A stretch of DNA of 64,000 bases from NCBI GenBank assembly GCA_965230935.1, contig OZ246400.1, positions 694,359 to 758,358 on the forward strand, given 5' to 3'. Source of the stretch: an uncultured Gammaproteobacteria bacterium (GTDB lineage Bacteria; Patescibacteriota; Patescibacteriia; Magasanikbacterales; JBBTQS01). A program made the position numbers and the translations under genes. Shown one piece after another: positions 3,383 through 63,096 of the stretch. The notes beneath the pieces are model-generated. The model saw only the letters and a list, made by a program, of their open reading frames with translations. It did not search any database and was not told the DNA's origin. The stretch's first letter is position 1. Each line of letters starts with the position of its first letter.

Positions 3383-3489
3383 ATGATTTTAGAGTTTAAT
3401 TTAGCTAAATTTAGAATATTCTAAGTATACGTTGTTTTATCTTAAATTAAAAACTTTGCTTATTTTAAATAAAAAATAGCTAAAAAAGC

Positions 3490-3518
3490 TTGACAAAATC
3501 GCTTTTTTGTGCTATAGT
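3490..3518 (+). promoter_or_regulatory. consensus sigma70 promoter (TTGACA-17 nt-TATAGT) for cassette A
   Basis: TTGACA at 3490-3495, 17 nt spacer, TATAGT at 3513-3518. GC-rich sequence begins immediately downstream. Confidence 0.55.
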
Positions 3519-3580
3519 ACGTGGTCGTTGGGTTGATCTCAGCGGCAGAGCCTCCCTTTGATAGGGAAAGGAGAACGTTT

Positions 3581-4046
3581 CGTGAAGACTTTCGAGTTCA
3601 ATTTCAGCGAGTCCGTGGCCTTCCGTCGGTTCATGCAGGAGCTCACCTGGCGCCGGGATTCCCTGCCCCTGAGTGACCTGTTCGAGCGTACCGAAGGGAA
3701 CGGTAAGCGTCGTGAGTGGTTCAACCTCTCCAAGGTGGAGACGGGCGACATCATCACCTGCACCGTGAGGGAGTACTTCGTCGGCTTCGGGTTCAGCTAC
3801 CCCGATGGTGGCAGCGACTTCATCAACCTGACCGGCACGGACGTGATGGATCAGGACGACACCTGCCGGTACCGTGAGGTGCGGTTCTACGTCCAGGACA
3901 TGCCCCGCGGCGAGGACGAGCTCATGGCTACCGTCGTGGTGGCCAAACGAGAGCGCTCCTACGAGGACGGGGACACGACCCGCTACAACACCATCTGGGC
4001 CGTGGACCTCGTGTGCTGGGAGGGCGACTGGGCTCTGGACGGCTAA
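3581..4046 (+). CDS. hypothetical protein, GC-rich cassette A (155 aa from GTG; listed ORF starts at TTG 3558)
   Basis: About 60% GC ORF in a roughly 45% GC backbone. AGGAGA RBS 7 nt upstream of GTG 3581. High GC3 codon usage. No recognizable domain. Confidence 0.55.
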
Positions 4047-4103
4047 GCGCCGCTCCACGACTTCGCTCACGGCGCCGCTCAAGCATTCCATTTACCAAAC
4101 AAC

Positions 4104-4148
4104 ACGACGGCCGCCCCCATTTTACCCGGGAGCGGCCTTCGTTTTTTG
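4104..4148 (+). terminator. rho-independent terminator of cassette A
   Basis: Stem ACGACGGCCGC / GCGGCCTTCGT followed by T5. Preceded by CA-rich AACAACACGAC. Confidence 0.5.
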
Positions 4149-4168
4149 AACAGAATTGCGAGCGCGAA

Positions 4169-5449
4169 TTATTTGATAATCAACTCACGAAGTTGATCAA
4201 CTGCTTTGCGATTCGCCAACATAGGCTTGAGCGACTCGCGGGTATCTTGCGTATCAATTTGCTCAAGTGCCTCAGCGTTGTCCTTGTACATTCCTTTCAT
4301 GGTCTGGATTTCTTTCTCAATCTCTTCGTCTGTGGCAGCAATACTTTCTTGCTCGCAATAGGTACGTAACACCAAAGTGGTTTTGACTCGTTTTTCCGCT
4401 TGCTGCGCATATCCTTCCATGACTTCGTCCTGGGATTTTTTAATTGATTCCAAATATTGTTCCACTGTCATGCCTTGCTGTTCAATACGAGATTTGAGCT
4501 CCATAAAGATACGACGTTTTTCAGTATCGATCAGCAACTGTGGAATTTCATCGAATTTTGCTTTGGTAATGATTCCTTCAAGCATCTCAATCTCTTGTCG
4601 CTCATGCTCTTTTTTGTCCGCCTCAGCCTGCATATTCTTTTGCAGAAGTTCAGTAAGTTTGGCCAAACTTTCCTGACCTAACCCTTTGGCAAACTCATCA
4701 TCGAGTTTTGGAAATTGGCGCTCAAACACATCTTTTACTTTGACTTTGAACTGCACCTCTTTGCCAGCCAAATGTTTTTGATAATGCTCTTTTGGAAACG
4801 GGAGAGTAAATGATTTTTCATCTCCTTTTTTAGAACCAATCAACTGTTCTGGTAATCCGGGTACATAATAGTCTTCACCAAGATATACTCCATGGTCTTT
4901 GGTGGTGCCACCTTCTACCACAACATTATCGAGGAGTAATTCCATATCAACCACCACCTTATCTTCTTTTGTGGCTGCGCCATTTTTAATCACCTCAGAT
5001 CCACGCATCTTGCGTAGGTTCTCAAGCGCATCTTTGGTTTCTTGTTCTGAGACGGTCTTTGATTTTTTCTCAACAGTAATCTTTTCAAGATTTGGTAGGG
5101 TTACTGAGGGGAGTACTGCCGCAGTGGCAGTAAATTCTAAATCATTGCCTGGTGCCATTTTTTTGATTGCCACCTCTGGCATACCAATGGTTTTGACTTT
5201 CTTTTCTTTAGTCGCAGCATAATATCCGGCTTGTACGATTTTCTCGAGTGCTGCTTCATAGATTGCCATTGCACCAAATTCTTGCTCCACCTTTTCATAG
5301 GGAGCTTTCCCACGTCGAAATCCCTTAATGTCACGATTTTCAGAAAGTTGATTTGCTGCCCGGGTAAGGTGTGGCTGCATATCATCGGTGCTCATGGTGA
5401 TGGTAAGTTCGACACGTGATTGGGGGAGTGTTTTGAGTTCTACATTCAT
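4169..5449 (-). CDS. tig: trigger factor
   Basis: 426 aa. N-terminal ribosome-binding region GFRRGKAP and overall trigger-factor architecture. Confidence 0.9.
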   Translation of the reverse strand: MNVELKTLPQSRVELTITMSTDDMQPHLTRAANQLSENRDIKGFRRGKAPYEKVEQEFGAMAIYEAALEKIVQAGYYAATKEKKVKTIGMPEVAIKKMAPGNDLEFTATAAVLPSVTLPNLEKITVEKKSKTVSEQETKDALENLRKMRGSEVIKNGAATKEDKVVVDMELLLDNVVVEGGTTKDHGVYLGEDYYVPGLPEQLIGSKKGDEKSFTLPFPKEHYQKHLAGKEVQFKVKVKDVFERQFPKLDDEFAKGLGQESLAKLTELLQKNMQAEADKKEHERQEIEMLEGIITKAKFDEIPQLLIDTEKRRIFMELKSRIEQQGMTVEQYLESIKKSQDEVMEGYAQQAEKRVKTTLVLRTYCEQESIAATDEEIEKEIQTMKGMYKDNAEALEQIDTQDTRESLKPMLANRKAVDQLRELIIK

Positions 5450-5555
5450 ATTGGTTAGCTAAAAGTGTGGGGCAAGTGTAGCAAAGTCGAAGTATTTGTC
5501 AATGTGGTCTGTATTTGCGACAATGGATTTGTTAGTTATTATCTTTATTGTAATG

Positions 5556-6160
5556 GTATGAAAACAATGATCACCGCAATGAGTGTTGTCGTGCTACTGG
5601 GTCTTATTGGCGCAGGGTGTGGTAACACGACTGAGTATTCAGATGAAGTAAGTACTAAAACACACACCATCGGGACAAAAACCCCTCACCCCGATGATAT
5701 TGATTTGATTACGCACACGGTTCCTGGAGAGTTCACGGTTGAGTACCCATCAAATTGGGAGACTGTTCCGTTTAATGGGGGCGAAGGCATTAACGTATTT
5801 TGGGCGCGTCACTTTGACCCAATGGCCAAGACTGGTATTGATGGGCTGCTTGAGAATTATCGTAGCGTGAACATTAGTCTTATTGATAAGCAAGGATTGG
5901 ATTTTAAAACACTTGCAGATAGTGTTTTAGAAAATGAAGAAGTGGATACTGCTGACTTTTTTGAAATCAATGGTCAGCCGGCGGTACGGTTTCCACGCCC
6001 ACTTCTTGAAGATGGCTCGAATGGCAGCTGGGTTTCGGTATTAGTGGATTACAAGGATGGAAAGTACGCATGGATTGATGGACAGTATGGTGTTGGTGAC
6101 GAGCAGGATGAAGTCGTCGCGCAGATTCATGCAGTACAAGAATCGTTTGTGATTCAGTAA
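5556..6160 (+). CDS. lipoprotein, hypothetical
   Basis: Signal peptide with lipobox LIGAGCGN. Start placed at internal ATG 5556 of the listed ORF. Confidence 0.5.
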
Positions 6161-8738: not shown

Positions 8739-8838
8739 ATAATATAGATAGCGTTAGATAGGTGTTGTAAAACTAGGGCTATAATAGGTGAGTGTCACGT
8801 AAAAGTCAATAATTGGGATGGAATTTTGCCTAAATTAC

Positions 8839-8876
8839 AAAGACCCTACTGCGTGTTGAAGCGCGAGAGGGTCTTT
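8839..8876 (-). terminator. hairpin terminator downstream of cassette gene B
   Basis: On the minus strand, stop codon, then CAACAACACACAACCACAA, then AAAGACCCT..AGGGTCTTT stem. Confidence 0.45.
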
Positions 8877-8893
8877 GTGGTTGTGTGTTGTTG

Positions 8894-10096
8894 TCAGGGC
8901 TCGTCGGTCTCCAGAGGTCCTGGGTAGAAGTTGATCCTCAGGGGGAACCACGTGCACTCGGCAGGGTCGCTGATAGGATCATCGGCCGTGGGGCAGATCT
9001 CTTCCAGCGTATTGCCGGATCGGAGCATCTCCGCGAGGTAGGCACGGTGCTCCTCGATACTTGGCGGTCCTTCGACCTTCACGACGATGTCTTGAGGAAG
9101 AGCGCCCTTGTGCTTGAGCTGTGAGACCACCTGCTCCAGTTGCTCAGGATCACCGGCTGCTGCCACGAGGGCTCGCGTGTCAGCATCTGAGAACTTGTCA
9201 GGATCCAGGGCGACGCACGCTTGCGGTTCCTGGGTCTCACCAGCTTCTTCAGTACCCTCTTGGGTGTCGCACCCGCTGAGGAACATGGATTGCATCTCCT
9301 CGTCAAGCTGGTGACGGCAGCCGGGGTTGAGTGCGGTGAAGAAGGTGAACGCCACGCTGAAGTGGTCTTTCAGGTACAGCTGGAGTTGGTACGACGTGTG
9401 CTTGAGAATATTGCACGCCTCATCACGCTCCCGAGCGGCTTGCGCATTGGAACCGGAGGCCGCATCCAGAGACTGCTCGATGAGGTCGTAGACCACCAGC
9501 CAGCCGCCTTCCATCTGGTTGGCGATGATTGCGCGAGTCAGGTCGCTCATCTGCGTCGGATCGCCCACTTCCTTTTGCTCGTCGATCGCCATGAGCATGC
9601 ATTGCTCAAGGCTCTCCAGTGGCGTCTCCTCAAAGGAACACGTGCACAGCGGGTGCGACGTGCCAAAGAGGGACAGGAGCATAACAGCAATGATCTCTTC
9701 TTTCGTCTCAGGCTTGGGCTCGACGGTCATGGCGCCGGAGACCACGCGCAGCAGTGCGGTGCTGCACAGCGCTTCCAGGTTGTCTTCCTGGTTACCTGCC
9801 GAGCGCATGATGTCCAGCAGCGCGTACCACGTGGCGTAGTCGTTTGCCAGTAGGAGCTGGGCGACCACGTGTGGCGTCTGCGGGTTCATCTTGTCCTCGA
9901 CCGGGGCGAGCAGCATCTTACGCACAGCTTGCATGCGCTCGAGCTTGTTCAGCTGCATGAGCTGCTCGTACGGGGTCGTGATGGTCGGCGCCTCGTCAGA
10001 CGAATCTCGTGGCTCCCAATCAGTGAGCCACAAGATTGTTCCTGCGAGGCCGATCAGGAAACCCAACGCCAAGGCGTTGAGTTGGAGTTTGGACAT
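8894..10096 (-). CDS. hypothetical membrane-anchored protein, GC-rich, paralog of the following ORF (cassette B)
   Basis: 400 aa, N-terminal TM. Shares motifs KLERMQxVR, DYATWYAL, SHPLC, GGW, FPGC and a C-terminal ICP..DPI..C with 10316..11494. About 60% GC. Own promoter TTGACA-17-TATGCT (10217-10245, minus strand) and GGAGGGG RBS. Confidence 0.6.
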   Translation of the reverse strand: MSKLQLNALALGFLIGLAGTILWLTDWEPRDSSDEAPTITTPYEQLMQLNKLERMQAVRKMLLAPVEDKMNPQTPHVVAQLLLANDYATWYALLDIMRSAGNQEDNLEALCSTALLRVVSGAMTVEPKPETKEEIIAVMLLSLFGTSHPLCTCSFEETPLESLEQCMLMAIDEQKEVGDPTQMSDLTRAIIANQMEGGWLVVYDLIEQSLDAASGSNAQAARERDEACNILKHTSYQLQLYLKDHFSVAFTFFTALNPGCRHQLDEEMQSMFLSGCDTQEGTEEAGETQEPQACVALDPDKFSDADTRALVAAAGDPEQLEQVVSQLKHKGALPQDIVVKVEGPPSIEEHRAYLAEMLRSGNTLEEICPTADDPISDPAECTWFPLRINFYPGPLETDEP

Positions 10097-10315
10097 ATGC
10101 CCCTCCAGAGGTAAAAGGTTGTGGTCTGTAGGTCAGCGCAATACACAATGCATCGCAGACCAATCAGTGTTGAGCAGTACTCAGCACGGTTGATGCACGA
10201 TTACAGACAACGATTCAGCATACACGATTTTTAGACGGTTGTCAAGATTGCGTAGTAATTAAAAAACGCCCGTAGCACGGAACGTTTTTCGTTGTTGGTT
10301 TGTTTGGAACGTGAC

Positions 10316-11494
10316 TTACTCCTTGCCCCTCACTGAGTAGGTGGTCATTTTTTGGGGCGGGCACTTCTCCGGCGTGCGGATCGGATCTTTCACCCCAGGG
10401 CAGATCTGCTCGATCGGTGCGCCTTGGCGTTTGAGCTGGATGAGCATACTGCGAAGTTCCTCAGGAGTAGTATCCTGCTCGGTCTTGATGAGCTGGCTTC
10501 GGTCCTTGGCACCAAGTTGGCGTGCCATTTCCTCGTCGCGCTGTGCATCGTTGTCGAGCTCCGCCAGCTTGTACAACATTGCCTCTTGCTCTTCGCGACA
10601 CGCTTGCTCTTGCGCTGCCTCACTCAGCTCACCCTCTTGAGCTTGCTCATCGGTCTCCTCAACCGGATCGCAAGTGAGGTCCTCGCTGAGCGTATCGGGA
10701 AGACCTTCTTTGCAGCCAGGAAAGAAGAGGGCGAACATGGCAAAACGCAAGCTGTACTCGTCAGCAGAGAGCGTGTTCAGTCTGCCAGCGACACGCCACA
10801 AAAACTCGCAGGTCTCTTTTTGCTGGGCATCTTCCCGCTTTCCGGAGGTGCCATTCTTCATGGCCGAGTAGACAGCTGACCAGCCGCCGACCATCTTGCT
10901 CGCCAGGATGTTGCGTGCGACCTCATCAATTACCGGGTCGAACTCGAGCGGGTTCTCTTTGTGCAATCGTTGCACCTCATCCTGGGTTTCTTTGCCGATT
11001 TGATGCGCCCAATCCGGGTAGTCCGGCAGCATGCACAGTGGGTGTGACCAGAGGTGAGTCACGATGCGCAAGTCATCCGGGACTCCTTGCGGATCGGTAC
11101 CTATGACCACGCGCATCAGTGCGATACACATGGGGTGGTCCAGGTCGATGCCGGTAGCTCCTGCCTGCTCCATGATTTCGTACAGGGCATACCAGGTGGC
11201 GTAGTCCTCGTTACGCAGCAGGTCGATAACCTCATGCGCAGCGCCGGGATCGTCCGGATCCCACTCCTTGGTGAGCGCCTCGCGCACGTGTTGCATGCGC
11301 TCGAGTTTGCTCATCATGGAAAGCGGCTTAGTTAGGTTCGAGCCGGCGTACACCACCAGCTGACTCTGGTAATAGGAGCGCACCGCGCTTCCCACACCGA
11401 GAGCAACCAGTAGTGCGATGATGACGATGGGCACTCTGCGCACCCACCGATGACGTTGCAAGAACGTCAAGTTTTTGGGTTTGCGAACGCTCAT
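10316..11494 (-). CDS. hypothetical membrane-anchored protein, GC-rich, paralog of previous (cassette C)
   Basis: 392 aa, N-terminal TM, same motif set as B. AGGAG RBS. Minus-strand 3' flank CCAAACAAACCAACAACG plus hairpin 10262-10289. Confidence 0.6.
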   Translation of the reverse strand: MSVRKPKNLTFLQRHRWVRRVPIVIIALLVALGVGSAVRSYYQSQLVVYAGSNLTKPLSMMSKLERMQHVREALTKEWDPDDPGAAHEVIDLLRNEDYATWYALYEIMEQAGATGIDLDHPMCIALMRVVIGTDPQGVPDDLRIVTHLWSHPLCMLPDYPDWAHQIGKETQDEVQRLHKENPLEFDPVIDEVARNILASKMVGGWSAVYSAMKNGTSGKREDAQQKETCEFLWRVAGRLNTLSADEYSLRFAMFALFFPGCKEGLPDTLSEDLTCDPVEETDEQAQEGELSEAAQEQACREEQEAMLYKLAELDNDAQRDEEMARQLGAKDRSQLIKTEQDTTPEELRSMLIQLKRQGAPIEQICPGVKDPIRTPEKCPPQKMTTYSVRGKE

Positions 11495-11652
11495 GTCACT
11501 CCTTCTCTCTCACGCGGTCGGGGTAATCGGGTGGTCGTAGCGGGGTATCAACAATAATATCCCAGACCAGATAGTATTTGGCGCGCCAAACAGTACCGAT
11601 CTGTAATATGACGTAACGTACGACCATACCCAGTTTAAACACACTTGTCAAG

Positions 11653-18059: not shown

Positions 18060-18581
18060 ATGGGCAAGCATAACCGGCCAAAAGGTAAGAAAAAAGTGGG
18101 GGGAAAGAAGCAGTGCAAAAAGCCGCCCAAAAAACGCTCCAGTCCAAAGCGAAAACCCTATCGGTTTGCCGTGCCAACTCCAAAAGAGGGTGTTCGGGAG
18201 ATCGTGATTCAGCTTTGGCATGGGGACGAGTTGCTTGATCAAGAACCTCTTGATCTTTCAAGTTTTTTAATGTTGTCACTGCAACTTTCAAGCATTTTCT
18301 ATCGGTTGGCGGGGGAACATGTCCCCGTTATCTTGCAAGATGCCGTGGTCTCCCAAGGGATTGCGGTGTTCCAGACAACCTTAGACGCATACGAAAAACA
18401 GCGATTTCCGGATGAGAAAACGCGTCCTGCGATGCCGCAGATGAAGCTTCCGGTGATCACTCCAAAGGGGTCGTGCGTCGTAGAGTATGATGGTACGGAT
18501 CGGGAACCGACGTGTCACATGTCCGATGGAACCTTCACCTTGGAAGAACTCAAGGCGCTGAAAAAAAAGAAGCGCAACTAA
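18060..18581 (+). CDS. hypothetical protein with highly basic N-terminus (cassette L)
   Basis: 173 aa, about 52% GC. Own promoter-like TTGCGT-17-TAGGAT. 3' flank CTCACACAACCACTCGACGAACACACC plus hairpin and T-run, same layout as the other GC-rich cassettes. Confidence 0.5.
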   Translation: MGKHNRPKGKKKVGGKKQCKKPPKKRSSPKRKPYRFAVPTPKEGVREIVIQLWHGDELLDQEPLDLSSFLMLSLQLSSIFYRLAGEHVPVILQDAVVSQGIAVFQTTLDAYEKQRFPDEKTRPAMPQMKLPVITPKGSCVVEYDGTDREPTCHMSDGTFTLEELKALKKKKRN

Positions 18582-18631
18582 CCATAACTCACACAACCAC
18601 TCGACGAACACACCAGTGCTCGTTGTTTGTT

Positions 18632-19330
18632 TTATGGTGATTTGATTAGTGACACTTTGTCACTTGCCGGCACGTCAATCGGCTCAAAGGTAATTGATCG
18701 GTCAATCTCGTTTTTTGGTCCAAATTTCTTTTTGGCGACCACTGCTACGTCGTTGTTCCCCACACGCAATGGTAATGCCTGTTCAAACATTCCAGTGTTA
18801 TTTGGCATGACTTCAATACCATTAATGTGTATGGTCGCGCCAACACTGGTTCTTCCACGAATGACGATCTGTGGTGCAGAGACTACTTGTCCTTCTTGTG
18901 GACTCATGATTGTTAGTTCTGGTGCGCGCATGAGCCCATAGATATGGGTGCCAAGGTATGTACCAATGACCGCGATGATAATCGCGAACACACTCACCCG
19001 TGCAAGTAGTGCCATGTTTATTTTTTTACTTACTCGCTCTTTCCATTGAGGTACCGGAGTGCGAGTTGGGCTTTGTTCTGGCATGTCATCAATCAAATCT
19101 CGTGGATCGACATGAAGCGCTGCGAGAATTTTTTTCAAAATCGCTTTGCGATATACTCCTTCAGGGAGTTTGTGATATTCGCACTGCTCCAATGCGCGCA
19201 AATGTCGCATGGGAATGTGTGTTTTTTCAGAGAGCGCAGTCATGGTCATTCCTGATTTTTTGCGTAAACTTTTTACCCGAACGCACAGTTCAGGTTCATG
19301 ACGCATGGTTTTTTTGCGCAATCGGGTCAT
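18632..19330 (-). CDS. HTH (XRE-like) domain membrane protein, RodZ-like
   Basis: N-terminal HTH (MTALSEKTHIPMRHLRALEQ), single TM segment, C-terminal extracytoplasmic domain. Immediately downstream of ftsK. Confidence 0.55.
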   Translation of the reverse strand: MTRLRKKTMRHEPELCVRVKSLRKKSGMTMTALSEKTHIPMRHLRALEQCEYHKLPEGVYRKAILKKILAALHVDPRDLIDDMPEQSPTRTPVPQWKERVSKKINMALLARVSVFAIIIAVIGTYLGTHIYGLMRAPELTIMSPQEGQVVSAPQIVIRGRTSVGATIHINGIEVMPNNTGMFEQALPLRVGNNDVAVVAKKKFGPKNEIDRSITFEPIDVPASDKVSLIKSP

Positions 19331-31373: not shown

Positions 31374-31439
31374 TGTAGATTTTTCTCTAAAATCAACAAC
31401 ACCGCCACGTGGTGGGGTGTTGGTGGTTGTGTTGAGTTT

Positions 31440-34025: not shown

Positions 34026-34110
34026 ATATTGACAATTGAGAGAAATTGATATAGTGTCGCATCAGACAGGAGTCACTGAACCAATACAGGACGTTATCGA
34101 GGAGGGAATC

Positions 34111-34779: not shown

Positions 34780-34832
34780 CACAACACAACACAACAACAC
34801 GACCCGAGCATAACTGCCGGGCCTTGTTTATA

Positions 34833-34861
34833 TTGACAATTTTTGCGCGAGAGCATATACT
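34833..34861 (+). promoter_or_regulatory. consensus-like promoter TTGACA-17-TATACT for cassette G
   Basis: Shares the 14-mer TTATATTGACAATT with the promoter of cassette F (34024-34037 vs 34828-34841). Confidence 0.5.
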
Positions 34862-34902
34862 GCCGCTTCCAGCTATGATGGCTGTGAGAAGGGAGGAGAT
34901 AA

Positions 34903-35739: not shown

Positions 35740-35840
35740 CTCCGCACACAACACAACAACCAAAATCCGCTCATTCGAGGACTCGATCAGGCGGTTTTTT
35801 GATCTTAAAATTTACTCAAATTATGCTATACTATTAATAT

Positions 35841-41116: not shown

Positions 41117-41194
41117 TGGGAAAGGTGTGCGTATGGTGAGGATCTGTCAATCTTGGCAGATTTTTTGTATCGCGCTATAGTGCTCTAATGTCTT

Positions 41195-42586
41195 TTGGAG
41201 GAAATAATGGGCCGTAAGTTCTTGATGAACGTCGCGTGCACACTTCTGATGGGTGCATGTCAGTCTGTGGTGCCGGATGCTTTTTCTGGTGGTGTGGTTG
41301 TTTCGGACGCTGATGTGGGGTTGGTTCCGGCGGGTTCAAGTGGCGTTATATCAACGGGTGTTGCAGATGGTGTAGGTGTGGTGTTGGATGAGTCCCAGGA
41401 TACGCAGCGTGGCGACGAGGCGGAGATGGACTCTCAACAGGATGGCGAGCCGACGATTGAGCACCAAGACGAAGTGATCGCTGTTGAGGAGCGCCTTGCT
41501 GGAACCTGTTGGTACATCGATCCAGCCAAGCACTGGCTGGACGAGACCAACGCAGTGCTTGCCATGAGCAACGACGATGTGGTGGTGATCGGGAACACCC
41601 ACGTGGCAGTGAGTGAGTACGCTGTACAAAAAGATGCCGTGATCACGCTACTCAATCGCTCAGGAGATCTGCTTTGGCAAGAGCAGCTCGGGTGGACAGA
41701 CCATGACGACCTTACCGCTGCTGTGGTGAGGGATGATACCCGATTTTTAGCCGTTGGGAACACACGTTCTTCTGGATCAGGTGGATCGGACGCGTGGATC
41801 ATAGAGATGGATGTGAGTGGTGAGCTGATTTGGGAGGAAGATTATGGCGGCGTGAACAATGATGTTGCTCGTTCGATCGCTCGTGATCTTGAGGGCGGGT
41901 ACATTGTTGTTGGCAATACTGGAAATGTGGTTGATGGTGTTGCCACGTCACCCTGGATATTTCGCATTAGCGAAATGGGACTTATGCAGTGGGGGAAGAT
42001 TTTAGGGCTCAAGCAGGGCGGCGTGCTTTCTGATGTGATTCGCATTAGCGAGAACGAATTTGTTGCGGTTGGCTCGACCGTGATGGATAGTGATGGAGAA
42101 ATCAAAACTATTCTGGTGCGGTTTGCACAAAATGGTGGTGTGATTTGGCAGGTGCTGCATAGCGCGATCCCGTATCAGGTTGGTCAATCAGTGGTGCAGA
42201 CCGCAAGTGGTGACTTTGTCATCACCGGCTATGCCGACATCGGTGAGCAATACCTGCATGACGGTTTTGTCCTACGCGTTACCGCTGAGGGTGGGTTTGT
42301 TTGGCAAAAGACATTGGGTGGTGATTACTATGACACCTTTACTGCAGCGGCCTGGACACTTGGTGATCATGTCTTGTTGGCAGGACTGACTCGTTCGTAT
42401 GGGTACGGCGGGGCTGATATGTGGTTGGTCAAGATGAAAGCTGGCGGTCAAGTGCTCTGGGAACAGGCCCATGGCACTCCTGATTTTGAAAAGGCTAACG
42501 CGGTGTTACCGCTTGAAGATGGGATGATTCTAGCGGGTCGCGGTGGGGTGTACCGACTCAATACGCATGGGCAGCTGTGTCCATAA
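41195..42586 (+). CDS. beta-propeller repeat lipoprotein (SBBP-like repeats), GC-enriched (cassette H)
   Basis: Lipobox LLMGAC. Seven approximately 50-aa repeats of the pattern VGNT..G..DAWI..D.SG...W. Promoter TTGGCA-17-TATAGT, GGAGG RBS. 3' flank TAACAACATAACAACGCACC plus hairpin. Confidence 0.6.
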   Translation: MEEIMGRKFLMNVACTLLMGACQSVVPDAFSGGVVVSDADVGLVPAGSSGVISTGVADGVGVVLDESQDTQRGDEAEMDSQQDGEPTIEHQDEVIAVEERLAGTCWYIDPAKHWLDETNAVLAMSNDDVVVIGNTHVAVSEYAVQKDAVITLLNRSGDLLWQEQLGWTDHDDLTAAVVRDDTRFLAVGNTRSSGSGGSDAWIIEMDVSGELIWEEDYGGVNNDVARSIARDLEGGYIVVGNTGNVVDGVATSPWIFRISEMGLMQWGKILGLKQGGVLSDVIRISENEFVAVGSTVMDSDGEIKTILVRFAQNGGVIWQVLHSAIPYQVGQSVVQTASGDFVITGYADIGEQYLHDGFVLRVTAEGGFVWQKTLGGDYYDTFTAAAWTLGDHVLLAGLTRSYGYGGADMWLVKMKAGGQVLWEQAHGTPDFEKANAVLPLEDGMILAGRGGVYRLNTHGQLCP

Positions 42587-42707
42587 CAACATAACAACGC
42601 ACCTCGTTATCCTTGAGCTTGGATGGCGAGGTTTGCATTGCCAAAAGTGCTTTTTCAGGCCAATATAGAGATATGGTAAGAAAATAGAGACCATTGCGTC
42701 AGATATC

Positions 42708-51627: not shown

Positions 51628-51640
51628 TAACAAAACATAA

Positions 51641-53534: not shown

Positions 53535-53606
53535 ATTATTACAAATGGTTAAGCGCTACATCAAAACCAGGAACCTTTCGGCTCCTGGTTTTTGGTTGTA
53601 GCGACG

Positions 53607-55340
53607 TTACCCTCCCTCGGTTTGGAGTTGTACCAGACGGTGGTACAGTCCATTTTGTCGCATGAGTTGATCGTGCGTTCCCACCTCGGCCACGCGACCA
53701 TCTTCCACGATGATGATCTTGTCCGCGTGCATGATGGTGGAGAGTCGGTGCGCAATGAGGATCAGCGTCTTTTTCCCTTCCAGAGTCGACAGCGCATCTT
53801 GAATGGCACGCTCAGACTCTGCATCCAGGTTGCTGGTTGCCTCATCAAACACCACCACGGTCGGATCGTTGAGCAGTGCTCGCGCAATACCCACTCGCTG
53901 CCGTTGTCCACCGGAGAGTTTCATACCACGCTCACCTACGATGGTGTTGTACCCGTCCGGGAGTGTAGAAGCAAACTCATGCACCCGTGCTAGCTTAGCC
54001 ACTCGTTTGACCGCTTGCTCGGTTGCTTTCGGGTTCCCATACGCAATGTTCTCCCAGATCGTTCCACTCATGATCTCGACCTCTTGCGGAACATATCCGG
54101 TCATGCGACGGTAGGCTTGCAGGCTGAGACCTCGCAAGTCATTCCCGTCGATGCGGATGGTTCCTGAGTTAGGGTCATAGTAGCGGAACAGTAGCTTCAC
54201 GATGGTCGACTTCCCACCCCCTGATGGTCCGGCAAATGCCACCGTCTCCCCAGGGTTGATGGAGAAGTTCACGTTGGAGAGTGCGTTTTGTTCTGGGGTG
54301 TACCCAAACGTCACGTCATCGAATGTGATTGCTCCGGTCCAGCGTTTTGGCGCGATCGCACCAGGTGCACTTACCACACGTGGTTTGGTGTGAATGATGT
54401 TGAACAGTCGTTGCATCGGCTCTGTTGCCTCAACCATGCGGTCGAGAATTTGGTTCAGGTTGAACATTGAAATGTACACCTTCTCCGAGAGCGTCAGAAA
54501 CAACACGACCGAACCAATGGTAAGTTCTCCAGTGATGGCTTTGTATCCAGCAAGTGAGATGATCCCAAGTCGTCCGAAGTTGATGATCATCATGCGCCAG
54601 AAGTTCATGCGCGTGCCGAACATCCAACGTAATCGTCCCAGGTCATAGATCCGTCCGCGCATTGCACCGTAGCGCTTCTTCTCGCGCTGCTCTTGGGCAA
54701 ACGCTTGCACTGTTTTGATGTTGATCACCGACTCGCACAGCCGACCGGCTGAGTTCTCGTACAGATCTTCTTGCTCTTTGCGCCACGGGTATGTGGTGTG
54801 ATGCAAATGCCAGGTCATGATCGCAAAGATCGGGATGACGATAGCAAAGAGAATGGCAAGCTGCCAATCTAGTGCGATCATCAAGATCGATGTCCAGGTG
54901 ATTTGCATGAGTAGGGGAATGAGCATCCACAACAGCTGTCCACCGAACTCGACCAGCTTCATGGTTCCGCGTTCAAGACGTGCGATTTGTTCACCGGTTT
55001 GTTCTTGCTCATGGAACCCGAGCGAGAGTGCCAAAAGTTTTTTCTGTGCGAGCTTCGGCAGCTCGTTTTCCATCCAGTACAATGCATCAAGGATGTAGCG
55101 ATCCACGATTACGTCGACCGCCGCAATCAGTGTTTGCGCCACAAAGATTCCCAGTGCCAACCAGAGGATGGTACTGAGTAGATCATCGGTGCGTAGTGTC
55201 AATGTGTCGAGCACTTCCTTAAAGAGGTATGTCGGCACAATCATCAGTGCTTCAAGCACCACGATGAACGCGATTGCCTTTTGGAAGACCTTCCGATGCG
55301 GTCTGATCAACCGTAGGAACTGTGATATGAATTCTTGCAT
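53607..55340 (-). CDS. ABC transporter permease/ATP-binding protein (MsbA-like exporter), GC-enriched (cassette I)
   Basis: Six N-terminal TMs. Walker A GPSGGGKST, signature LSGGQRQR, Walker B VVVFDEATS. Start at ATG (MQEF) with AAGGAG RBS. About 55% GC. Confidence 0.85.
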   Translation of the reverse strand: MQEFISQFLRLIRPHRKVFQKAIAFIVVLEALMIVPTYLFKEVLDTLTLRTDDLLSTILWLALGIFVAQTLIAAVDVIVDRYILDALYWMENELPKLAQKKLLALSLGFHEQEQTGEQIARLERGTMKLVEFGGQLLWMLIPLLMQITWTSILMIALDWQLAILFAIVIPIFAIMTWHLHHTTYPWRKEQEDLYENSAGRLCESVINIKTVQAFAQEQREKKRYGAMRGRIYDLGRLRWMFGTRMNFWRMMIINFGRLGIISLAGYKAITGELTIGSVVLFLTLSEKVYISMFNLNQILDRMVEATEPMQRLFNIIHTKPRVVSAPGAIAPKRWTGAITFDDVTFGYTPEQNALSNVNFSINPGETVAFAGPSGGGKSTIVKLLFRYYDPNSGTIRIDGNDLRGLSLQAYRRMTGYVPQEVEIMSGTIWENIAYGNPKATEQAVKRVAKLARVHEFASTLPDGYNTIVGERGMKLSGGQRQRVGIARALLNDPTVVVFDEATSNLDAESERAIQDALSTLEGKKTLILIAHRLSTIMHADKIIIVEDGRVAEVGTHDQLMRQNGLYHRLVQLQTEGG

Positions 55341-55840
55341 GTGTTTGTTGGTTACTCCTTCTTTCTCCTTCAAGTCCCTTCTTTCCCGCCTCGTGTTCGT
55401 GTACACGAAAATACTCTGCTTCTTAGAAGCAGAGTATTTATTCGAAAATTGCTAATTTAAGCTAAATTCATGATTTCGAAGAAACACACTGCTCCCAAGA
55501 GTTGGTATCGACATATGCAATACCGCGTGCCTGTGGGGTAACAGTTGGCATGCCAAAAGCAAGCCCTACCATGAGCTGGAAGGATGCAAACTTCTGGTTT
55601 TGCCAGTGTTTCTCCATAGAGATTAAAAATAATTGTCGTTATTGTAGACGTTTCCAGAGTGGAAACGTTACACTATAGCGCGCGCAATATGAGATGTCAA
55701 GAATCATATTTTAGGGTCACTTATTGACAAACGTACATCTTTATGCTACACTATCCGCGTATAAATGCAGTCTCATTACTGGGAATAGTGTCGATATTTC
55801 TCAAGAGTCAAGCATATACATGTAAGAAAATATCTACGTT

Positions 55841-56673: not shown

Positions 56674-56743
56674 GGGATATTGTCATAATTAAAACAACCT
56701 CGTCCTGGTGAGGAAGAGGTTGTTTTGTTGTGCTGTTGTGTTA

Positions 56744-57407
56744 TCACTTCATGAAGAAGCGTTGTGCGTTCTCGCCGACCACTCGTCGAATCTGCCACTC
56801 CTCCAGTCCGTGCGCGAGCAGGGAGCGGATCAAGGTCTTGAAGCAGTCTGCGACCGTGTGGCAGCCGGGTAGACGCCACTCGTCCAGAATGCCGCCGTAG
56901 TCGGTACCGATCCCTACCTGGAGCCACTCGCTGGCTTCTCCGAGCTCCACCAGATGCTCGATGAAGGGGCCATCCAGTCGCTCGTAGAATGGCTTTGCAG
57001 GAGAGAGGCACACGATGCCGCCGAGCTGGATGATCTCACGTGCCAGATGCATACTCAGGCACCGATCGTAGTTGCCATTTCGCAGTAGCGGGTTGACCAC
57101 TTCACTGTGCTGTACACCACCGTGGGTGTAACACAGTGGCGGCGCGCCTCCCCAGTGCCAGTATCCAGCATCTTTTAGGGTGTAACTCAGTGCGGATGAC
57201 CTCCACCTCGGCTTTGTGGGCGGGCGTGGTCTTGGGATAGGTTCCATCCCGTTCGCAGAACAGGACGCGCAAGGCGCCACCGAGCTGGTCCATGTTGGCG
57301 AGCTGTTCGGCAGACCCCCATCCGCCGCTCTGCTCACCATACTGATCCAGATGTGCGTCAAAGCACATAAACGGACGGTCATACCCGTCAATGGTGATTC
57401 CAGGCAC
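56744..57407 (-). pseudogene. amidohydrolase-2 (PF04909-like metal-dependent hydrolase), frameshifted and shortened, GC-rich (cassette J)
   Basis: GTG start with AAAGGAGG RBS. N-terminal metal-binding FDAHLD in one frame. H.GG (LCYTHGG) and GIGTDYGG (metal-binding Asp) plus C-terminal ENAQRFF in the +1 frame. Frames switch near 57190. 3' flank TAACACAACAGCACAACAAAACAACC plus hairpin 56690-56735. Confidence 0.5.
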
Positions 57408-57563
57408 TGGCGGTCCTCCTTTCAGTGCGTGATAGTCAGTGGGTTTGGGATAATCTCCCTCTCATGCCGACAATTCGCACAAGAGGAAGATTATCAGTAA
57501 TTGAGCAGGTGATCTGGAGTGACCAGACATCTCCTGTCAGGAAGACAGGCACATTTCAATATG

Positions 57564-61693: not shown

Positions 61694-61708
61694 ATTAAGG
61701 GTAATATT

Positions 61709-62290
61709 ATGAAAATAAAAACAACTGTTTTTTTGATTGCCGCTGTAGTGCTTATTGGAGGTGGGTGCAGTTCTGATACGCCGACGCCCGAAGCATCGGT
61801 GGAGAAGCCATTAGTAGAGCAAGTGCCGGTTTCAAGTGATACGCCGGTTAGTGATTTGCAAGATCAAGACGCAGAAGAAGTAGTAGAAGAAGGACAGGAT
61901 AACACAACAGAAGATACAACAAAGAAGGATACACAAACGCTTGACATTGATTCTCAAGTAAAAGAGACATCAGAAAAAGACACGCCATCACCTGAACCGG
62001 TTGTTGAATCACCACCAGTCGTGATTGTTCCAGTAATTGCAAAACAATGGGAGTTTGAACCAGCAACCATTACGGTCAGCCAAGGTGATCGTGTGCGTAT
62101 GGAAGTGCAGAGTGTAGATGTAACGCACGGCATCAATATTCCCGATTTTGGGGTGAATGAAAATCTCAAGGCAGGGGAGCGTGTGGTCATTGAATTTGAT
62201 GCTGACAAAAAAGGAACGTTTCCATTTACGTGCTCGGTATTTTGCGGCGCGTTTCATGGGGACATGAGTGGGAAGATTGTAGTGCAGTAG
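61709..62290 (+). CDS. cupredoxin-domain lipoprotein with CuA-type motif (COX2-like)
   Basis: Lipobox LIGGGCSS. Acidic low-complexity linker. C-terminal H...C-x3-C-G-x2-H-x2-M (HGINIP ... CSVFCGAFHGDM). Confidence 0.7.
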   Translation: MKIKTTVFLIAAVVLIGGGCSSDTPTPEASVEKPLVEQVPVSSDTPVSDLQDQDAEEVVEEGQDNTTEDTTKKDTQTLDIDSQVKETSEKDTPSPEPVVESPPVVIVPVIAKQWEFEPATITVSQGDRVRMEVQSVDVTHGINIPDFGVNENLKAGERVVIEFDADKKGTFPFTCSVFCGAFHGDMSGKIVVQ

Positions 62291-62333
62291 TTGATCTGCA
62301 GTTTTGGATAGTTGGGGTTTCAAAAATACAAAA

Positions 62334-62359
62334 GCGGCCGGCAGTTAACTGCCGGCCGC
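62334..62359. terminator. perfect 11-bp hairpin terminator (GCGGCCGGCAG-TTAA-CTGCCGGCCGC)
   Basis: Flanked by A-run on plus and T-run on minus. Ends the minus-strand K operon. Confidence 0.55.
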
Positions 62360-62458
62360 TCTACTATCTAAAACAATTTGCGGAAAGTTGACCGCACGCT
62401 CTCGTTTCCGATGCGGGCGGTCGGGTGTAGGGTTGCGGCTCATGGCCGCGTGCGAGTT

Positions 62459-62719
62459 TCATGGCTGTTGCTCCTTGACGGTACTCCAGGCCACGGTGTT
62501 GAAAAGGATACTGGGCGGGGCATCGGTCGCCGGTGCCAGCGGCGTGTCGGGTCGCGGATCAGTGGTACTCTTGGCTTCGCGTCGTGGGATCGGGTCGGGG
62601 TGATCGAGCGCATCAGCGATGCAGGCCTCGACGGTGGTGAGATCCAGACAGCGAGAGTCAAGGGTATCAGCGATCATGGGCCAGTACGCGAGCGCGTAAC
62701 AGGCTGGCACGACCAACAT
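62459..62719 (-). CDS. small membrane protein with Pro-rich C-terminus, GC-rich (cassette K, second gene). Start uncertain.
   Basis: Hydrophobic segment FFWVSMLVVPACYALAYWPMIA. 65% GC. Directly downstream of the zinc-ribbon gene. Confidence 0.35.
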   Translation of the reverse strand: MLVVPACYALAYWPMIADTLDSRCLDLTTVEACIADALDHPDPIPRREAKSTTDPRPDTPLAPATDAPPSILFNTVAWSTVKEQQP

Positions 62720-62783
62720 GCTTACCCAGAAAAACCAGTCTTGAAAAAAGCGTAGCAGGTCTTTGAGAACCTCCGTGACGGCC

Positions 62784-63014
62784 CTTACGCCGCCTGATTG
62801 GCCGCTCGGCGTTCGGCATAGAACGCCTGGCGAGCCTGCCATTGGTCGAAACGGCGGCGAACGCGCCGGCACCCTGCGCAATGCTCTCGACCGTTGCGGT
62901 CGAAGAACATGTTGTTGCAGCGCGTCGAAGCGCAAATCCGCTTGGCCATTCCACGCATCTGGATACGGACGAGCTTGCCGTCCGGTCCCCGTTTGAGGTC
63001 GAGCTTAATGCCCA
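62784..63014 (-). CDS. small zinc-ribbon protein (CxxxC...CxxC), GC-rich (cassette K, first gene)
   Basis: 76 aa (MGIKLDLKRGPDGKLVRIQMRGMAKRICASTRCNNMFFDRNGREHCAGCRRVRRRF...). AAGGAG RBS 4 nt before ATG 63014. Arg-rich. Confidence 0.5.
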
Positions 63015-63096
63015 TGGAACTCCTTGAGATGACGTTGCATCTGAAATTACTATAGCATAGGTTTGTAACTTTTCTAAAATAAGATACAAATCTCAC

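Follow-up and report, generated by a model that had tools for sequence, protein, structure and literature searches.

The 64-kb stretch of DNA analyzed here (the window) raises the question of how GC-rich genes equipped with their own expression signals came to lie between the core genes of a bacterial chromosome. The backbone carries tig, hppA, recA, rpoBC, ruvC, trxB, and tkt, with dnaA and dnaN located just beyond the window. TrxB matches named Patescibacteria or Magasanikbacteria, and synteny is common to the window and Uhrbacteria/Patescibacteria metagenome-assembled genomes (MAGs). The backbone is a Patescibacteria (CPR) chromosome near the origin.

A preliminary description of the window had placed GC-rich loci in a backbone of about 45% GC. 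Recomputation showed a profile that is not uniform and recovered all of these loci in place, with L (GC 0.50), H (0.53), and I (0.53) as weak islands. Twelve segments above 52% GC, amounting to 8.0 kb or 12.5% of the window, have a mean GC of 59.0% versus 44.3% for the remainder. The excess resides chiefly at third codon positions, where GC3 ranges from 0.53 to 0.88 in the units versus 0.40 in the backbone, and the untranslated regions of the units are slightly raised (0.45 versus 0.39 in native intergenic DNA). The GC steps are sharp at the unit boundaries, and trxB, which is located between E and F, keeps a GC3 of 0.41.

The GC-rich genes have in common a TTGACA-17-TAnnnT promoter, a Shine-Dalgarno (SD) site, a GC3-rich open reading frame (ORF), an unpaired CA spacer, and a hairpin terminator (Table 1). 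This layout, which had been attributed to every locus, exceeds chance but is not complete in all of them: L and J lack a good promoter, D and E lack an SD site, and K lacks the CA (ACAAC) spacer and therefore stands outside the common layout. TTGACA-N17-TAnnnT occurs 14 times in the window versus 0.6 expected. Eight of the 14 sites serve cassette units (A to G and the site upstream of I), and strong native genes, rpoB and rpsF among them, have promoters of the same type. SD sites precede 9 of 12 cassette genes versus 4 of 38 backbone/core genes (p = 5e-5). At A, the public annotation gives a 203-aa ORF on the minus strand; the coding strand of cassette A is the plus strand (GC3 of 0.88). For F, the start is ATG 34108; TTG 34036 overlaps the promoter. 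The leader of C contains AscI and PmeI sites.

The CA-rich tract that follows the stop codon is specific to the GC-rich genes (Mann-Whitney p = 4e-6). ACAAC is present in 11 of 11 spacers tested versus 7 of 47 backbone genes, and the enrichment holds (∼5e-6) even given the tracts' own composition. The position of the pentamer is constant, after the stop codon and before the hairpin, and 10 of the 16 ACACAAC copies of the window fall in unit spacers, every one on the sense strand of the gene. In all 11 3′ regions, the predicted fold is an unpaired spacer plus a hairpin whose tail is U-rich. The density of the composite 3′ module in the window exceeds that in 1.56 Mb of other loci by a factor of 9, and two clear modules follow slot genes in the closest relative, L099.

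Table 1. Features of the GC-rich units. Promoters, SD sites, and terminators are predictions from sequence.
Feature	Position	Strand	Description
Unit A	3490..4150	+	promoter 3490-3518 TTGACA-17-TATAGT, TG-extended; SD AAGGAG
A ORF	3582-4046	+	154-aa orphan, GC3 0.88
A 3′ end	~4096-4148	+	terminator hairpin; ACAAC at 4099
Unit B	8830..10245	-	promoter 10217-10245 TTGACA-17-TATGCT; 120-nt leader; SD GGAGG
B ORF	8894-10096	-	400-aa orphan, Cys-rich, N-terminal TM helix
B 3′ end	8837-8878	-	terminator; CA spacer 8869-8895, two ACAAC
Unit C	10255..11651	-	promoter 11623-11651 TTGACA-17-TATGGT; 128-nt leader; SD AAGGAG
C ORF	10316-11494	-	392 aa, B paralog, 31% identity
C 3′ end	10261-10290	-	terminator; CA spacer 10284-10308 with ACAAC
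Unit D	31385..32146	-	promoter 32118-32146 TTGACA-17-TATGCT, adjoins E terminator; no SD
D ORF	31440-32093	-	~208-217 aa; sub-threshold MutT/Nudix match only
D 3′ end	31394-31425	-	terminator; CA spacer 31408-31440 with ACAAC
Unit E	32150..33044	-	promoter 33016-33044 TTGACA-17-TAGGCT; no SD
E ORF	32223-32954	-	short-chain dehydrogenase (SDR), GC3 0.74
E 3′ end	32154-32185	-	terminator; CA spacer 32183-32203 with ACAAC
Unit F	34029..34832	+	promoter 34029-34057 TTGACA-17-TAGTGT, adjoins trxB terminator; SD GAGGAGG
F ORF	34108-34779	+	NDP-hexose 2,3-dehydratase-like, single-domain
F 3′ end	34796-34828	+	weak hairpin; (ACAAC)n spacer 34777-34805
Unit G	34833..35805	+	promoter 34833-34861 TTGACA-17-TATACT; SD GGGAGGAG
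G ORF	34903-35739	+	278 aa, no recognized domain
G 3′ end	35761-35801	+	terminator; CA spacer 35742-35768, three ACAAC
Unit H	41153..42640	+	promoter ~41153-41181 TTGGCA-17-TATAGT; SD GGAGG; weak island
H ORF	41207-42586	+	lipoprotein signal, beta-propeller repeats
H 3′ end	42601-42632	+	terminator; ACAAC at 42594
Unit I	53550..55700	-	candidate promoter 55672-55700 TTGACA-17-TATAGT, 270-330 nt upstream; SD AAGGAG
I ORF	53607-55340	-	ABC exporter: ABC_membrane and ABC_tran
I 3′ end	53553-53605	-	strong terminator; ACAAC ~53599
Unit J	56685..57430	-	decayed gene; SD AAAGGAGG, GTG at 57407; no good promoter
J 3′ end	56691-56726	-	terminator; CA spacer 56716-56742, three ACAAC
Island K	62326..63080	-	promoter ~63049-63078 TTTAGA-18-TATAGT, TG-extended; SD AAGGAG
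K ORFs	62785-63015; ending 62459	-	three small ORFs: 76 aa; ~87-158 aa; ~30 aa with ATGA overlap
K 3′ end	62326-62367	-	perfect palindromic terminator; no ACAAC spacer
Unit L	18060..18635	+	no convincing promoter; weak SD
L ORF	18060-18581	+	173-aa orphan, basic N terminus
L 3′ end	~18602-18625	+	terminator, shared with convergent gene 18632-19330; ACAAC at 18593

The cargo of the units is mutually unrelated and, in agreement with the preliminary description, non-housekeeping: orphan proteins stand beside an SDR, an ABC exporter, a propeller lipoprotein, a protein resembling hexose dehydratases, and a decayed peptidase. Family searches also bore out the absence of a recognizable domain from most products (A, B, C, L, G, and K). 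The A protein gave no match in these searches, and its AF2 model has a pLDDT of 40. B matched only itself among 5.8 billion proteins, and a B/C profile search of 1.84 billion representatives returned B and C with no other homolog. The reading frame of J stays open for ∼85 codons from its GTG, and a peptidase-M19-like C terminus (ending at 56744) lies in a different frame, the total falling short of a normal M19 by ∼110 aa. J is a frameshifted, truncated peptidase-M19 remnant.

The window was compared with five short related loci. The related MAGs keep the core gene order and have variable slots at the same places. Flanking genes align with their relatives over the full length; as had been proposed, no backbone gene is interrupted. 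Several slots are empty in relatives. The hppA|lysM-M23 gap, occupied here by B and C, measures only 96 bp in L006; the recA-HTH gene slot of L measures 156 bp in L009; L085 and L099 have no D at their ruvC|SDR junction; and ruvC directly adjoins trxB in L101. An empty slot of E was also seen among the relatives. The same slots are filled by different genes across the relatives. These comparisons support the description of the units as compositionally atypical, self-contained expression units in the gaps of a conserved backbone, but they do not support a recent insertion of every unit. Same-slot homologs of E are found in L085 (57% identity), L103 (∼45%), and L099 (∼37 to 38%); those of F adjoin trxB in L099 (39 to 42%) and L103 (41%); and those of H, with near-native GC, are found in L101 (∼45%) and L085 (39 to 43%). 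G probably has same-slot homologs as well, given its weak collinear similarity to ORFs of L099 (E = 4e-4) and L101 (E = 3e-3). The homologs of E, F, H, and probably G occur in genomes with RpoC just 76 to 80% identical.

In L085, L099, L101, and L103, the slot genes have a higher GC than the backbone of the same genome, over backbone GC3 values from 0.20 to 0.6 and even in L103 with its 55% GC. In L085 and L101, they are also more often SD-led than core genes; the numbers for L099 are small. The L085 ortholog of E has near-native composition and lacks the CA spacer and ACAAC, which for this unit counts in part against the preliminary description. The genome closest to that of the window is L099 by both RpoC (80%) and YebC (72%), while TrxB is nondiscriminating (77 to 78% to L099 and L085 alike). 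Against this order, the SDR encoded by E is nearer to that of L085 (57% identity) than to that of L099 (38%); the slot SDR and the core genes give conflicting trees.

We consider it probable that the units are natural CPR accessory genes, organized as autonomous, mostly single-gene, moron-like units that are exchanged at permissive slots. Of the options raised at the outset, the closest to this is that of acquired genes that were domesticated and have a 3′ element in common. Judging from the sequence signals, each unit would be transcribed from its own canonical sigma-70-type promoter and translated via an SD site of a kind largely missing from the core genes of the clade, and the transcript would end at an intrinsic terminator after an unpaired, C/A-only ACAAC spacer. 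A limited number of permissive gaps between conserved core operons would hold the units and, clade-wide, would carry differing, fast-evolving genes. The high GC3, the SD use, and the sharp boundaries suggest as source a horizontally exchanged, higher-GC gene pool, probably shared mostly among Patescibacteria, from which units would be added, replaced, and lost at the slots, followed by slow amelioration or decay. The orphan status of B and C among the 1.84 billion representatives indicates fast turnover and, like the decay of J, counts for exchange over vertical descent. The analysis revealed neither a vehicle for transfer nor a mechanism of recombination.

The spacer is most likely part of a termination/3′-UTR module, its unstructured sequence keeping the hairpin free of the GC-rich ORF; a role as a binding or processing site is possible and is the least certain element. 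ACAAC, missing from the L085 ortholog of E, may reflect a habit of the lineage and not belong to a transferred unit.

E, F, H, and probably G have been in the same slots since before the divergence of the compared genomes, and a GC3 of still 0.74 in E is not predicted by simple acquisition and amelioration unless E was replaced recently. GC-richer slot genes in L103 likewise need a rather GC-rich pool or an in situ process. It is conceivable, although unlikely, that the slot genes have long been inherited vertically within the clade, to which they are specific, and evolve very fast, with a high GC3 driven or held locally, possibly by GC-biased gene conversion (gBGC) at recombination hot spots or by codon/mRNA selection in a special expression class, of which SD, promoter, and ACAAC would be a native “grammar” rather than imports. 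The same-slot homologs, the GC-richer slot genes of every relative whatever its backbone GC, the SD use by slot genes across the clade, and unit promoters of the host's own consensus type agree with such a history, as does the donor search, which found none for any unit (best non-clade matches of E at ≤40% identity, zero for B/C). Gene conversion should, however, give gradients, whereas the GC steps are sharp and neighboring core genes such as trxB are unaffected; the GC3 shift of +0.3 to +0.5 is, to our knowledge, far above the gBGC effects on record for bacteria. The conflict between the SDR and core trees, the slots that are empty or hold unrelated genes, and the decay of J also argue for exchange.

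A new mobilization system is improbable. Recombination or recognition would then take place at the ACAAC tract and hairpin, perhaps in single-stranded form as for attC or the ends of IS200/IS605, and promoter-gene-terminator units would be moved from one permissive site to another by an enzyme whose gene lies elsewhere. The invariable presence, strand, and place of ACAAC, the stereotyped layout around unrelated cargo, the modules after L099 slot genes, and the precise insertions that leave flanking genes undamaged are as expected of such a system. The hairpins, however, all differ in sequence, length, and loop, leaving the pentamer as the sole conserved box, and have an A-run/U-run closure, as bidirectional intrinsic terminators typically do. 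Mobile-element hallmarks are absent: the units are not arrayed, no 5′ partner site, direct repeats, or target duplications were found, and the 64 kb plus an extra 8 kb contain no integrase, transposase, HUH enzyme, or other recombinase near the units. The units are not copies of one element: they have short regulatory motifs but no other repeat in common, and the proposal of a mobile or selfish cassette family with one common element is not supported.

The sequence of the window is natural and matches a 102-kb metagenome contig, ENA ERZ930061 k127_73386, and the independent assemblies of ERR2281800 and ERR2281801 agree by 99.97 to 100% over A to G and their junctions. The same junctions are present in the MEGAHIT and Logan assemblies of both runs, unit A having been found in the latter, and in a 931-kb NCBI contig that carries B, RecA, and TrxB. 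Engineered cassettes, or the chimeric misassembly of a GC-rich organism's DNA into a CPR contig, are suggested by the design-like layout (consensus promoter, strong ribosome-binding site, unstructured spacer, terminator), the AscI and PmeI sites, and the sharp GC steps, but this origin, also considered in the preliminary description, has a negligible probability and is already effectively refuted by these identical junctions, by the lack of similarity of the window to plasmid, vector, or phage DNA, by the related environmental MAGs, whose corresponding slots hold homologs that are GC-elevated and SD-led, and by the excess of GGCGCGCC, which spans the whole window without specific concentration in the cassettes; moreover, we know of no culture or engineering of CPR bacteria of this type.

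SD-poor bacterial lineages exist, for example, Bacteroidota. The core genes of this clade likewise start on AU-rich leaders without SD, but here a minority gene class of the same genome has strong SDs. A literature search on SD usage in Patescibacteria gave no description of such a contrast. Integron cassettes are similarly small single-gene units with unrelated cargo and an imperfect hairpin directly at the 3′ end; unlike these typically promoterless cassettes, the units have their own promoter, their hairpins look like intrinsic terminators, and they lack attC boxes (R″/R′ GTTRRRY), intI, attI, and an array.

Variable content between conserved core genes is also typical of HGT hot spots and genomic islets, although here each slot holds one or two genes and no mobility genes. 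In Patescibacteria, HGT is reported to account for up to 13% of genome length and to be mostly Patescibacteria to Patescibacteria (PMC12455944). The units resemble this in their fraction (12.5% of the window), in their ABC transporter and surface/sugar-modifying cargo, and in an exchange that would occur mostly within the phylum; that study describes neither the stereotyped promoter/SD/ACAAC/terminator grammar nor core genes without SD beside accessory genes that have one.

The phage morons of Hendrix and Juhala are defined as single genes that bring along a promoter and a terminator, have an atypical composition, are inserted between adjacent genes, and have an unknown acquisition mechanism (as quoted in PMC4378225). 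Like them, the units mostly comprise one ORF with accessory cargo, a promoter, and a factor-independent terminator, separate genes that related genomes have side by side, differ in composition from their neighbors, and lack a recognizable recombinase target. Unlike morons, they reside not in a phage or prophage but in a cellular core chromosome near dnaA, among rpoBC, recA, tig, and trxB; they are GC-richer than the host and not merely different in composition; they differ from host genes by SD use and have a conserved ACAAC spacer; and several occupy the same slot across species.

The GC profile of the window was recomputed at 500 nt and combined with a 200-nt segmentation, which returned 12 segments above 52% GC. 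These sum to 8.0 kb, or 12.5% of the window, and average 59.0% GC versus 44.3% for the remaining sequence. The GC-rich islands were found again on this profile at the loci listed in the preliminary description; units L, H, and I are weak (GC, 0.50 to 0.53). The excess resides chiefly at third codon positions: GC3 ranges from 0.53 to 0.88 in the units versus 0.40 in the backbone genes (n = 38), with GC1 slightly raised and GC2 almost unchanged. A GC-richness strictly confined to the open reading frames (ORFs) was rejected, given that the untranslated regions of the units, too, exceed native intergenic DNA in GC by some 7 points.

Coordinates of the accessory units (A to L) and of other features discussed in the text (window positions unless another locus is named)
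Feature	Position	Strand	Content
A	3490-4150	+	
A, coding sequence	3582-4046	+	154 aa, GC3 0.88
A, public gene call	3480-4091	-	203-aa ORF, GC3 0.57
B	8830-10245	-	membrane-anchored, Cys-rich paralog of C
C	10255-11651	-	membrane-anchored, Cys-rich paralog of B
L	18060-18635	+	
FtsK gene	19340-21703	-	two clusters of degenerate TCTTC/GTC repeats within 19359-21070
D	31385-32146	-	Nudix match, subthreshold
D, promoter box	32141-32150		TTTATATTGACA
E	32150-33044	-	short-chain dehydrogenase (SDR), 32223-32954
F	34029-34832	+	single-domain NDP-hexose 2,3-dehydratase-like; start ATG 34108
F, promoter box	34025-34034		TTTATATTGACA
G	34833-35805	+	
G, promoter box	34829-34838		TTTATATTGACA
H	41153-42640	+	lipoprotein with beta-propeller repeats
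Backbone gene	45347-46777	-	RNase_H_2/PD-(D/E)XK (Cas4-like) protein
tRNA	48917-48988		
Backbone gene	51552-53534	+	660-aa P-loop protein, weak Zeta-toxin/STAND matches
I	53550-55700	-	ABC exporter
Promoter upstream of I	55672-55700	-	TTGACA-17-TAnnnT
Divergent promoter	55724-55752	+	TTGACA-17-TAnnnT
J	56685-57430	-	peptidase-M19 remnant
K	62326-63080	-	three small ORFs
Palindrome GGCGCGCC	1182, 11580, 15623, 30896, 57141		
dnaA, dnaN	14671-17463 of L105		about 4 to 7 kb left of window position 1
F homolog	5171-5809 of L103		annotated on the opposite strand

The expression signals of the units were then compared with those of the backbone. Fourteen copies of the promoter pattern TTGACA-N17-TAnnnT are present in the window versus 0.6 expected; eight of them drive units A to G and probably I, and the remainder sit before native genes, rpsF and rpoB among them. 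Promoters are clear for A to H, distant for I, and poor for L and J. At the other end of the genes, the 18-nt span richest in C/A downstream of the stop codon reaches a content of 0.91 in GC-rich genes versus 0.71 in the backbone (p = 4 × 10−6). All 11 of the 3′ regions fold as an unpaired spacer of about 17 to 28 nt followed by a hairpin closed by an A-run and a U-run (z-scores, −0.8 to −7.5; weak for C, F, and L). These predicted structures are consistent with intrinsic (Rho-independent) terminators, which comprise a GC-containing hairpin and then a U-rich tail just downstream of the gene. The single layout initially ascribed to every cassette stands as far as the promoter, C/A-rich spacer, and hairpin statistics are concerned. 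It fails for L and J, which lack a convincing promoter, and for K, which has no such spacer and carries three small ORFs; J is also frameshifted and shortened.

The promoters of D, F, and G have a common extended box that abuts the T-run of the preceding terminator, and those of F and G have 15 nt in common (TTTATATTGACAATT). This sharing could reflect an UP-like element or promoter copying between adjacent units. Upstream of the exporter unit I, a 400-nt gap contains two perfect promoters placed back to back, 24 nt apart; used with the minus-strand member, the leader of I would span about 270 to 330 nt, with the hairpin aaatactctgcttctaagaagcagagtattt just ahead of the start.

The pentamer ACAAC was found between stop and hairpin in 11/11 units versus 7/47 backbone genes, an outcome with a chance of about 5 × 10−6 when each tract is shuffled. 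The longer ACACAAC is present in 7 of 11 units versus 1 of 47 backbone genes. It has no overall enrichment in the window (16 copies versus 12 expected); 10 of the 16 copies lie in unit spacers, all on the sense strand of the gene. The composite module (ACAAC in a C/A-rich tract, hairpin, T-run) has a density of 1.9 per 10 kb in the window versus 0.2 per 10 kb across other loci totaling 1.56 Mb, and 10 of its 12 matches in the window are at unit 3′ ends. These figures establish the position, strand specificity, and enrichment of the spacer, as well as its unpaired state in predicted folds. ACAAC-hairpin modules also follow two slot genes of L099, the closest relative of the window by RpoC and YebC, and the L085 ortholog of E has no C/A-rich spacer and an only mildly raised GC content. 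The ACAAC spacer would work at the RNA level as part of a 3′ module. Lacking structure itself, it may insulate the terminator, allowing it to fold behind an ORF that is GC-rich and highly structured (interiors of −17 kcal/mol per 60 nt in the units versus −11 in the backbone), and it may also be a recognition site for a protein or an RNase. No Rfam family matched it in a scan of the whole window, and we know of no described family that does.

Units and backbone differ in translation signals too. A Shine-Dalgarno (SD) sequence of at least 4 nt (GGAGG or AAGGAG types) precedes 9/12 unit genes versus 4/38 backbone genes (Fisher p = 5 × 10−5), a score that hinges on start-codon choice, for which public gene calls were taken where on record. 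Genes such as rpoB, rpoC, rpsF, tig, hppA, recA, and trxB have AU-rich leaders without an SD. The same division was observed between slot genes (those in the variable gaps between core genes) and core genes of related loci, with SD-led fractions of 5/5 versus 2/9 in L085, 2/3 versus 1/11 in L101, and 2/4 versus 0/5 in L099. Core genes in this Patescibacteria clade are essentially SD-less, with AU-rich leaders. The idea that the SD compensates for structured start regions was set aside, the difference being marginal (−9.2 versus −7.3 kcal/mol, p = 0.045).

Four related loci (L085, L099, L101, and L103) were recovered through the nearest homologs of TrxB and of the SDR. In all, the analysis covered one genome over 64 kb with an 8-kb extension, together with five short loci from relatives. 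The four recovered loci have in common the core order rpoB-rpoC-yebC-ruvC-[slot]-trxB-[slot]-p35841-tkt-pfkB-fba-...-p40643-[slot], where p35841 and p40643 are window proteins; identity to the window is 76 to 80% for RpoC and 55 to 85% for core proteins. Insertion between backbone genes, as first proposed, was confirmed by gaps that are closed or small in relatives: the B/C gap measures 96 bp in L006, that of L 156 bp in L009, D is absent from L085 and L099, and ruvC adjoins trxB in L101. The ruvC-trxB slot holds D and E in the window, only the SDR in L085 and in L099, the SDR with three other genes in L103, and nothing in L101. The trxB-p35841 slot holds F and G in the window, two unrelated ORFs in L085, a 276-aa ORF and an F homolog in L099, an F homolog in L103, and two ORFs in L101. 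With the same flanking core genes and differing accessory content across the five loci, both slots fit the description of hot spots of horizontal gene transfer between conserved core genes. Homologs of H come after p40643 in L085 and L101. Slot homologs have low similarity: they are 57, 45, and about 37 to 38% identical for E (L085, L103, and L099, respectively), about 40% for F, and 39 to 46% for H, and G has weak collinear matches (E = 4 × 10−4 and 3 × 10−3). In all four relatives, GC is higher in the slot genes than in the backbone of the same locus, with GC3 of 0.31 to 0.36 versus 0.20 in L101, 0.42 to 0.50 versus 0.34 in L085, 0.56 to 0.71 versus 0.32 to 0.40 in L099, and 0.67 to 0.76 versus 0.60 in L103. 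By core genes the window is nearest to L099 (RpoC, 80%; YebC, 72%), whereas its slot SDR is 57% identical to that of L085 versus 38% to that of L099; judged from these identities, the slot SDR tree is in conflict with the core.

A horizontally exchanged gene pool fits these observations better than divergence in situ, given the sharp GC steps (trxB holds a GC3 of 0.41 between E and F), the slots that are empty or filled with unrelated genes, the incongruence of the SDR, the decaying J, and the several orphans. In Patescibacteria, up to 13% of genome length has been attributed to horizontal transfer, mostly within the phylum (PMC12455944); the islands here amount to 12.5%. A process acting on the units in place is nonetheless a serious rival, since none of the units could be traced to a donor, E has a GC3 of 0.74 although it is, like F and H, a long-term resident of its slot, and slot genes are richer in GC than the backbone even in L103, a relative with 55% GC. 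On balance we consider it unlikely.

The cargo is unrelated from unit to unit and, as originally described, non-housekeeping. The accompanying claim that most products have no recognizable domain was upheld for A, B, C, G, L, and the K ORFs, which family and HMM searches placed in no family (family libraries gave no significant matches for A, B, C, L, and G), and was not upheld for E, F, H, I, and J. The paralogs B and C are 31% identical; a search of 5.8 billion clustered proteins revealed no further homolog, and neither did a full HMMER profile scan of 1.84 billion representatives. AlphaFold models of A (pLDDT, 40) and of B and C (pLDDT, 55) are, at these values, not usable for fold searches. 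PADLOC returned nothing for any unit, so a role in defense is without evidence. Rfam found one tRNA only in the whole window; B and C have long leaders, but neither of these contains a known riboswitch or small RNA. E belongs to a clade-specific SDR subfamily with YxxxM replacing YxxxK; in E and three homologs the Tyr is invariant and Met stands at +4, where canonical SDRs have Lys, which points to a catalytically atypical subfamily. For A, promoter, SD, terminator, and GC3 agree on the plus strand, opposite to the public call, and the F homolog of L103 is likewise annotated on the opposite strand. In the AT-rich genomes of the candidate phyla radiation (CPR), inserts of high GC seem prone to such mis-stranded annotation, which also conceals them in exact-protein look-ups. 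Such look-ups found neither the plus-strand product of A nor p51552, another window protein, on record because public gene calls differ.

The backbone is the origin-proximal part of a small bacterial chromosome, with tig, H+-PPase, rpsF-ssb-rpsR, efp, recA, ftsK, rpoB, rpoC, yebC, ruvC, trxB, transketolase, pfkB, and fba; dnaA and dnaN are located some 4 to 6 kb outside its left edge. In L105, which extends the window leftwards, rnpA and yidD lie upstream of dnaA and dnaN on the opposite strand. Beyond about 12 kb, cumulative GC skew shows a steady rise. The closest named TrxB homologs are from Patescibacteria or Magasanikbacteria, and the hppA-tig-AP-endonuclease order is common to Uhrbacteria and Patescibacteria metagenome-assembled genomes (MAGs). 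A TrxB scan of JGI metagenomes gave relatives at 50 to 54% only, too distant to be informative. A genome scan with H+-PPase, a protein too conserved and transfer-prone to reveal a close relative, gave 70% as the best among the matches listed and synteny with L005, L006, L009, and L018, with no close relative among them. L006, L007, and L009, titled "uncultured Gammaproteobacteria bacterium," have hppA-tig and recA-ftsK synteny with the backbone and RecA identities up to 79%, and these labels may be wrong. The repeat clusters in the FtsK gene encode long acidic Glu/Asp-rich stretches. The genes for the Cas4-like and P-loop proteins have backbone composition and no placement hinting at a link with the units; from their matches, a defense or mobile-DNA flavor is possible.

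The preliminary option of a new kind of mobile or selfish cassette family is not supported, as there is no common repeat, the hairpins all differ in sequence, and no recombinase was found. Among the units no long or inverted repeats are shared, B and C as paralogs excepted; the recurring elements are limited to the promoter hexamers and the pentamer ACAAC, and no direct or inverted repeats flank the units. It is very improbable that the ACAAC-hairpin serves as a recombination site. A repeated element of the MITE, REP, or IS200-like type was rejected, there being no conserved terminal or hairpin sequence. A genomic island or integrative element was likewise rejected, with no integrase, transposase, or HUH enzyme annotated in the window or its 8-kb extension, no flanking repeats, and a sole tRNA that adjoins no unit. 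Integron cassettes fare no better: the 3′ hairpins, read by eye, have A-run/U-run closures and no GTTRRRY/RYYYAAC pair, and the Pfam annotations contain no integrase. Moreover, integron cassettes form arrays next to intI/attI and are mostly promoterless, whereas the units lie dispersed along 60 kb and have individual promoters. Nothing supports an origin on a phage or plasmid. Searches with PHROGs returned no match to structural or replication proteins of phages, no relatives were seen in viral contigs (scans with A, F, G, and D) or phage records, and whole units searched against 72,556 plasmids and 50,697 phage records matched nothing but a 76-nt generic SDR motif; the contig, plasmid, and phage searches detect close relatives only.

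The weakest readings, engineered DNA and an assembly chimera, were not borne out by the plasmid and phage searches or by the environmental assemblies, where the same junctions occur in several assemblies of two runs. A 102-kb metagenome contig in ENA (ERZ930061, from run ERR2281801) contains a stretch identical to the window, Logan assemblies of ERR2281801 and ERR2281800 include tig together with unit A, a separate ERR2281800 assembly spans positions 22223 to 38009 with D, E, F, and G (4 differences in 15.8 kb), B, RecA, and TrxB are found on a 931-kb NCBI contig, and homologous slot genes occur in related environmental MAGs. An AscI site was rejected as a cloning scar, the motif being overrepresented across the whole window. 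This palindrome, GGCGCGCC, occurs 5 times versus 0.5 expected (0/100 shuffles reach 5), in backbone and cassette DNA alike, and may be a restriction-modification or regulatory motif.

CPR bacteria, or Patescibacteria, represent a large and mostly uncultured bacterial diversity with tiny genomes, and how they acquire and express accessory functions, host interaction probably among them, is poorly understood. As we read it, the window is an extreme case of a clade-wide pattern, in which a conserved SD-less core is broken at a few permissive interoperon gaps by autonomous, fast-evolving, GC3-rich, SD-led genes. Such accessory genes sit in few reusable slots, and what sets them apart from core genes is, beyond composition, an entire suite of expression signals. 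The SD dichotomy and the ACAAC spacer appear to be undescribed features. Speculatively, and with only a modest chance of being right, two gene classes with distinct expression grammars would coexist in one genome of about 1 Mb, an SD-less AT-rich core and a GC3-rich, SD-led, individually promoted accessory set. The mRNAs of the latter would all be tagged by ACAAC before the terminator. The tag could define a posttranscriptional regulon, in which an RNA-binding protein or RNase controls host-interaction genes jointly, or could mark units for an exchange mechanism. If the pattern is genome-wide, it offers a sequence rule for the flexible gene pool, including orphans missed by homology and genes called mis-stranded, a test case of the way in which an AT-rich host without SD sequences comes to express foreign genes of high GC, and a candidate RNA motif to study.

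The known system closest to the units is the moron, defined as a single coding region with its own promoter and terminator, located between otherwise adjacent genes and differing from them in composition (PMC4378225). The units also have their own promoter and terminator, with K exceptional in its three small ORFs and L and J in their poor promoters. They are inserted between adjacent genes (the B/C, L, D, and ruvC-trxB gaps) and contrast in composition (59% versus 44% GC). Morons reside in phages and prophages, whereas the units are flanked by core cellular genes near dnaA. As read from the sequence, their architecture matches the moron definition in all respects but the cellular host. The more dramatic readings, engineered DNA or a new selfish family, are not supported, and the units are best described as natural moron-like accessory genes in a CPR chromosome, so that the moron concept, framed for phages, now covers a cellular chromosome as well. 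Should either role of the ACAAC tag prove true, the units would be the equivalent, in a cell, of the morons of phages and would have a recognition signal of their own.
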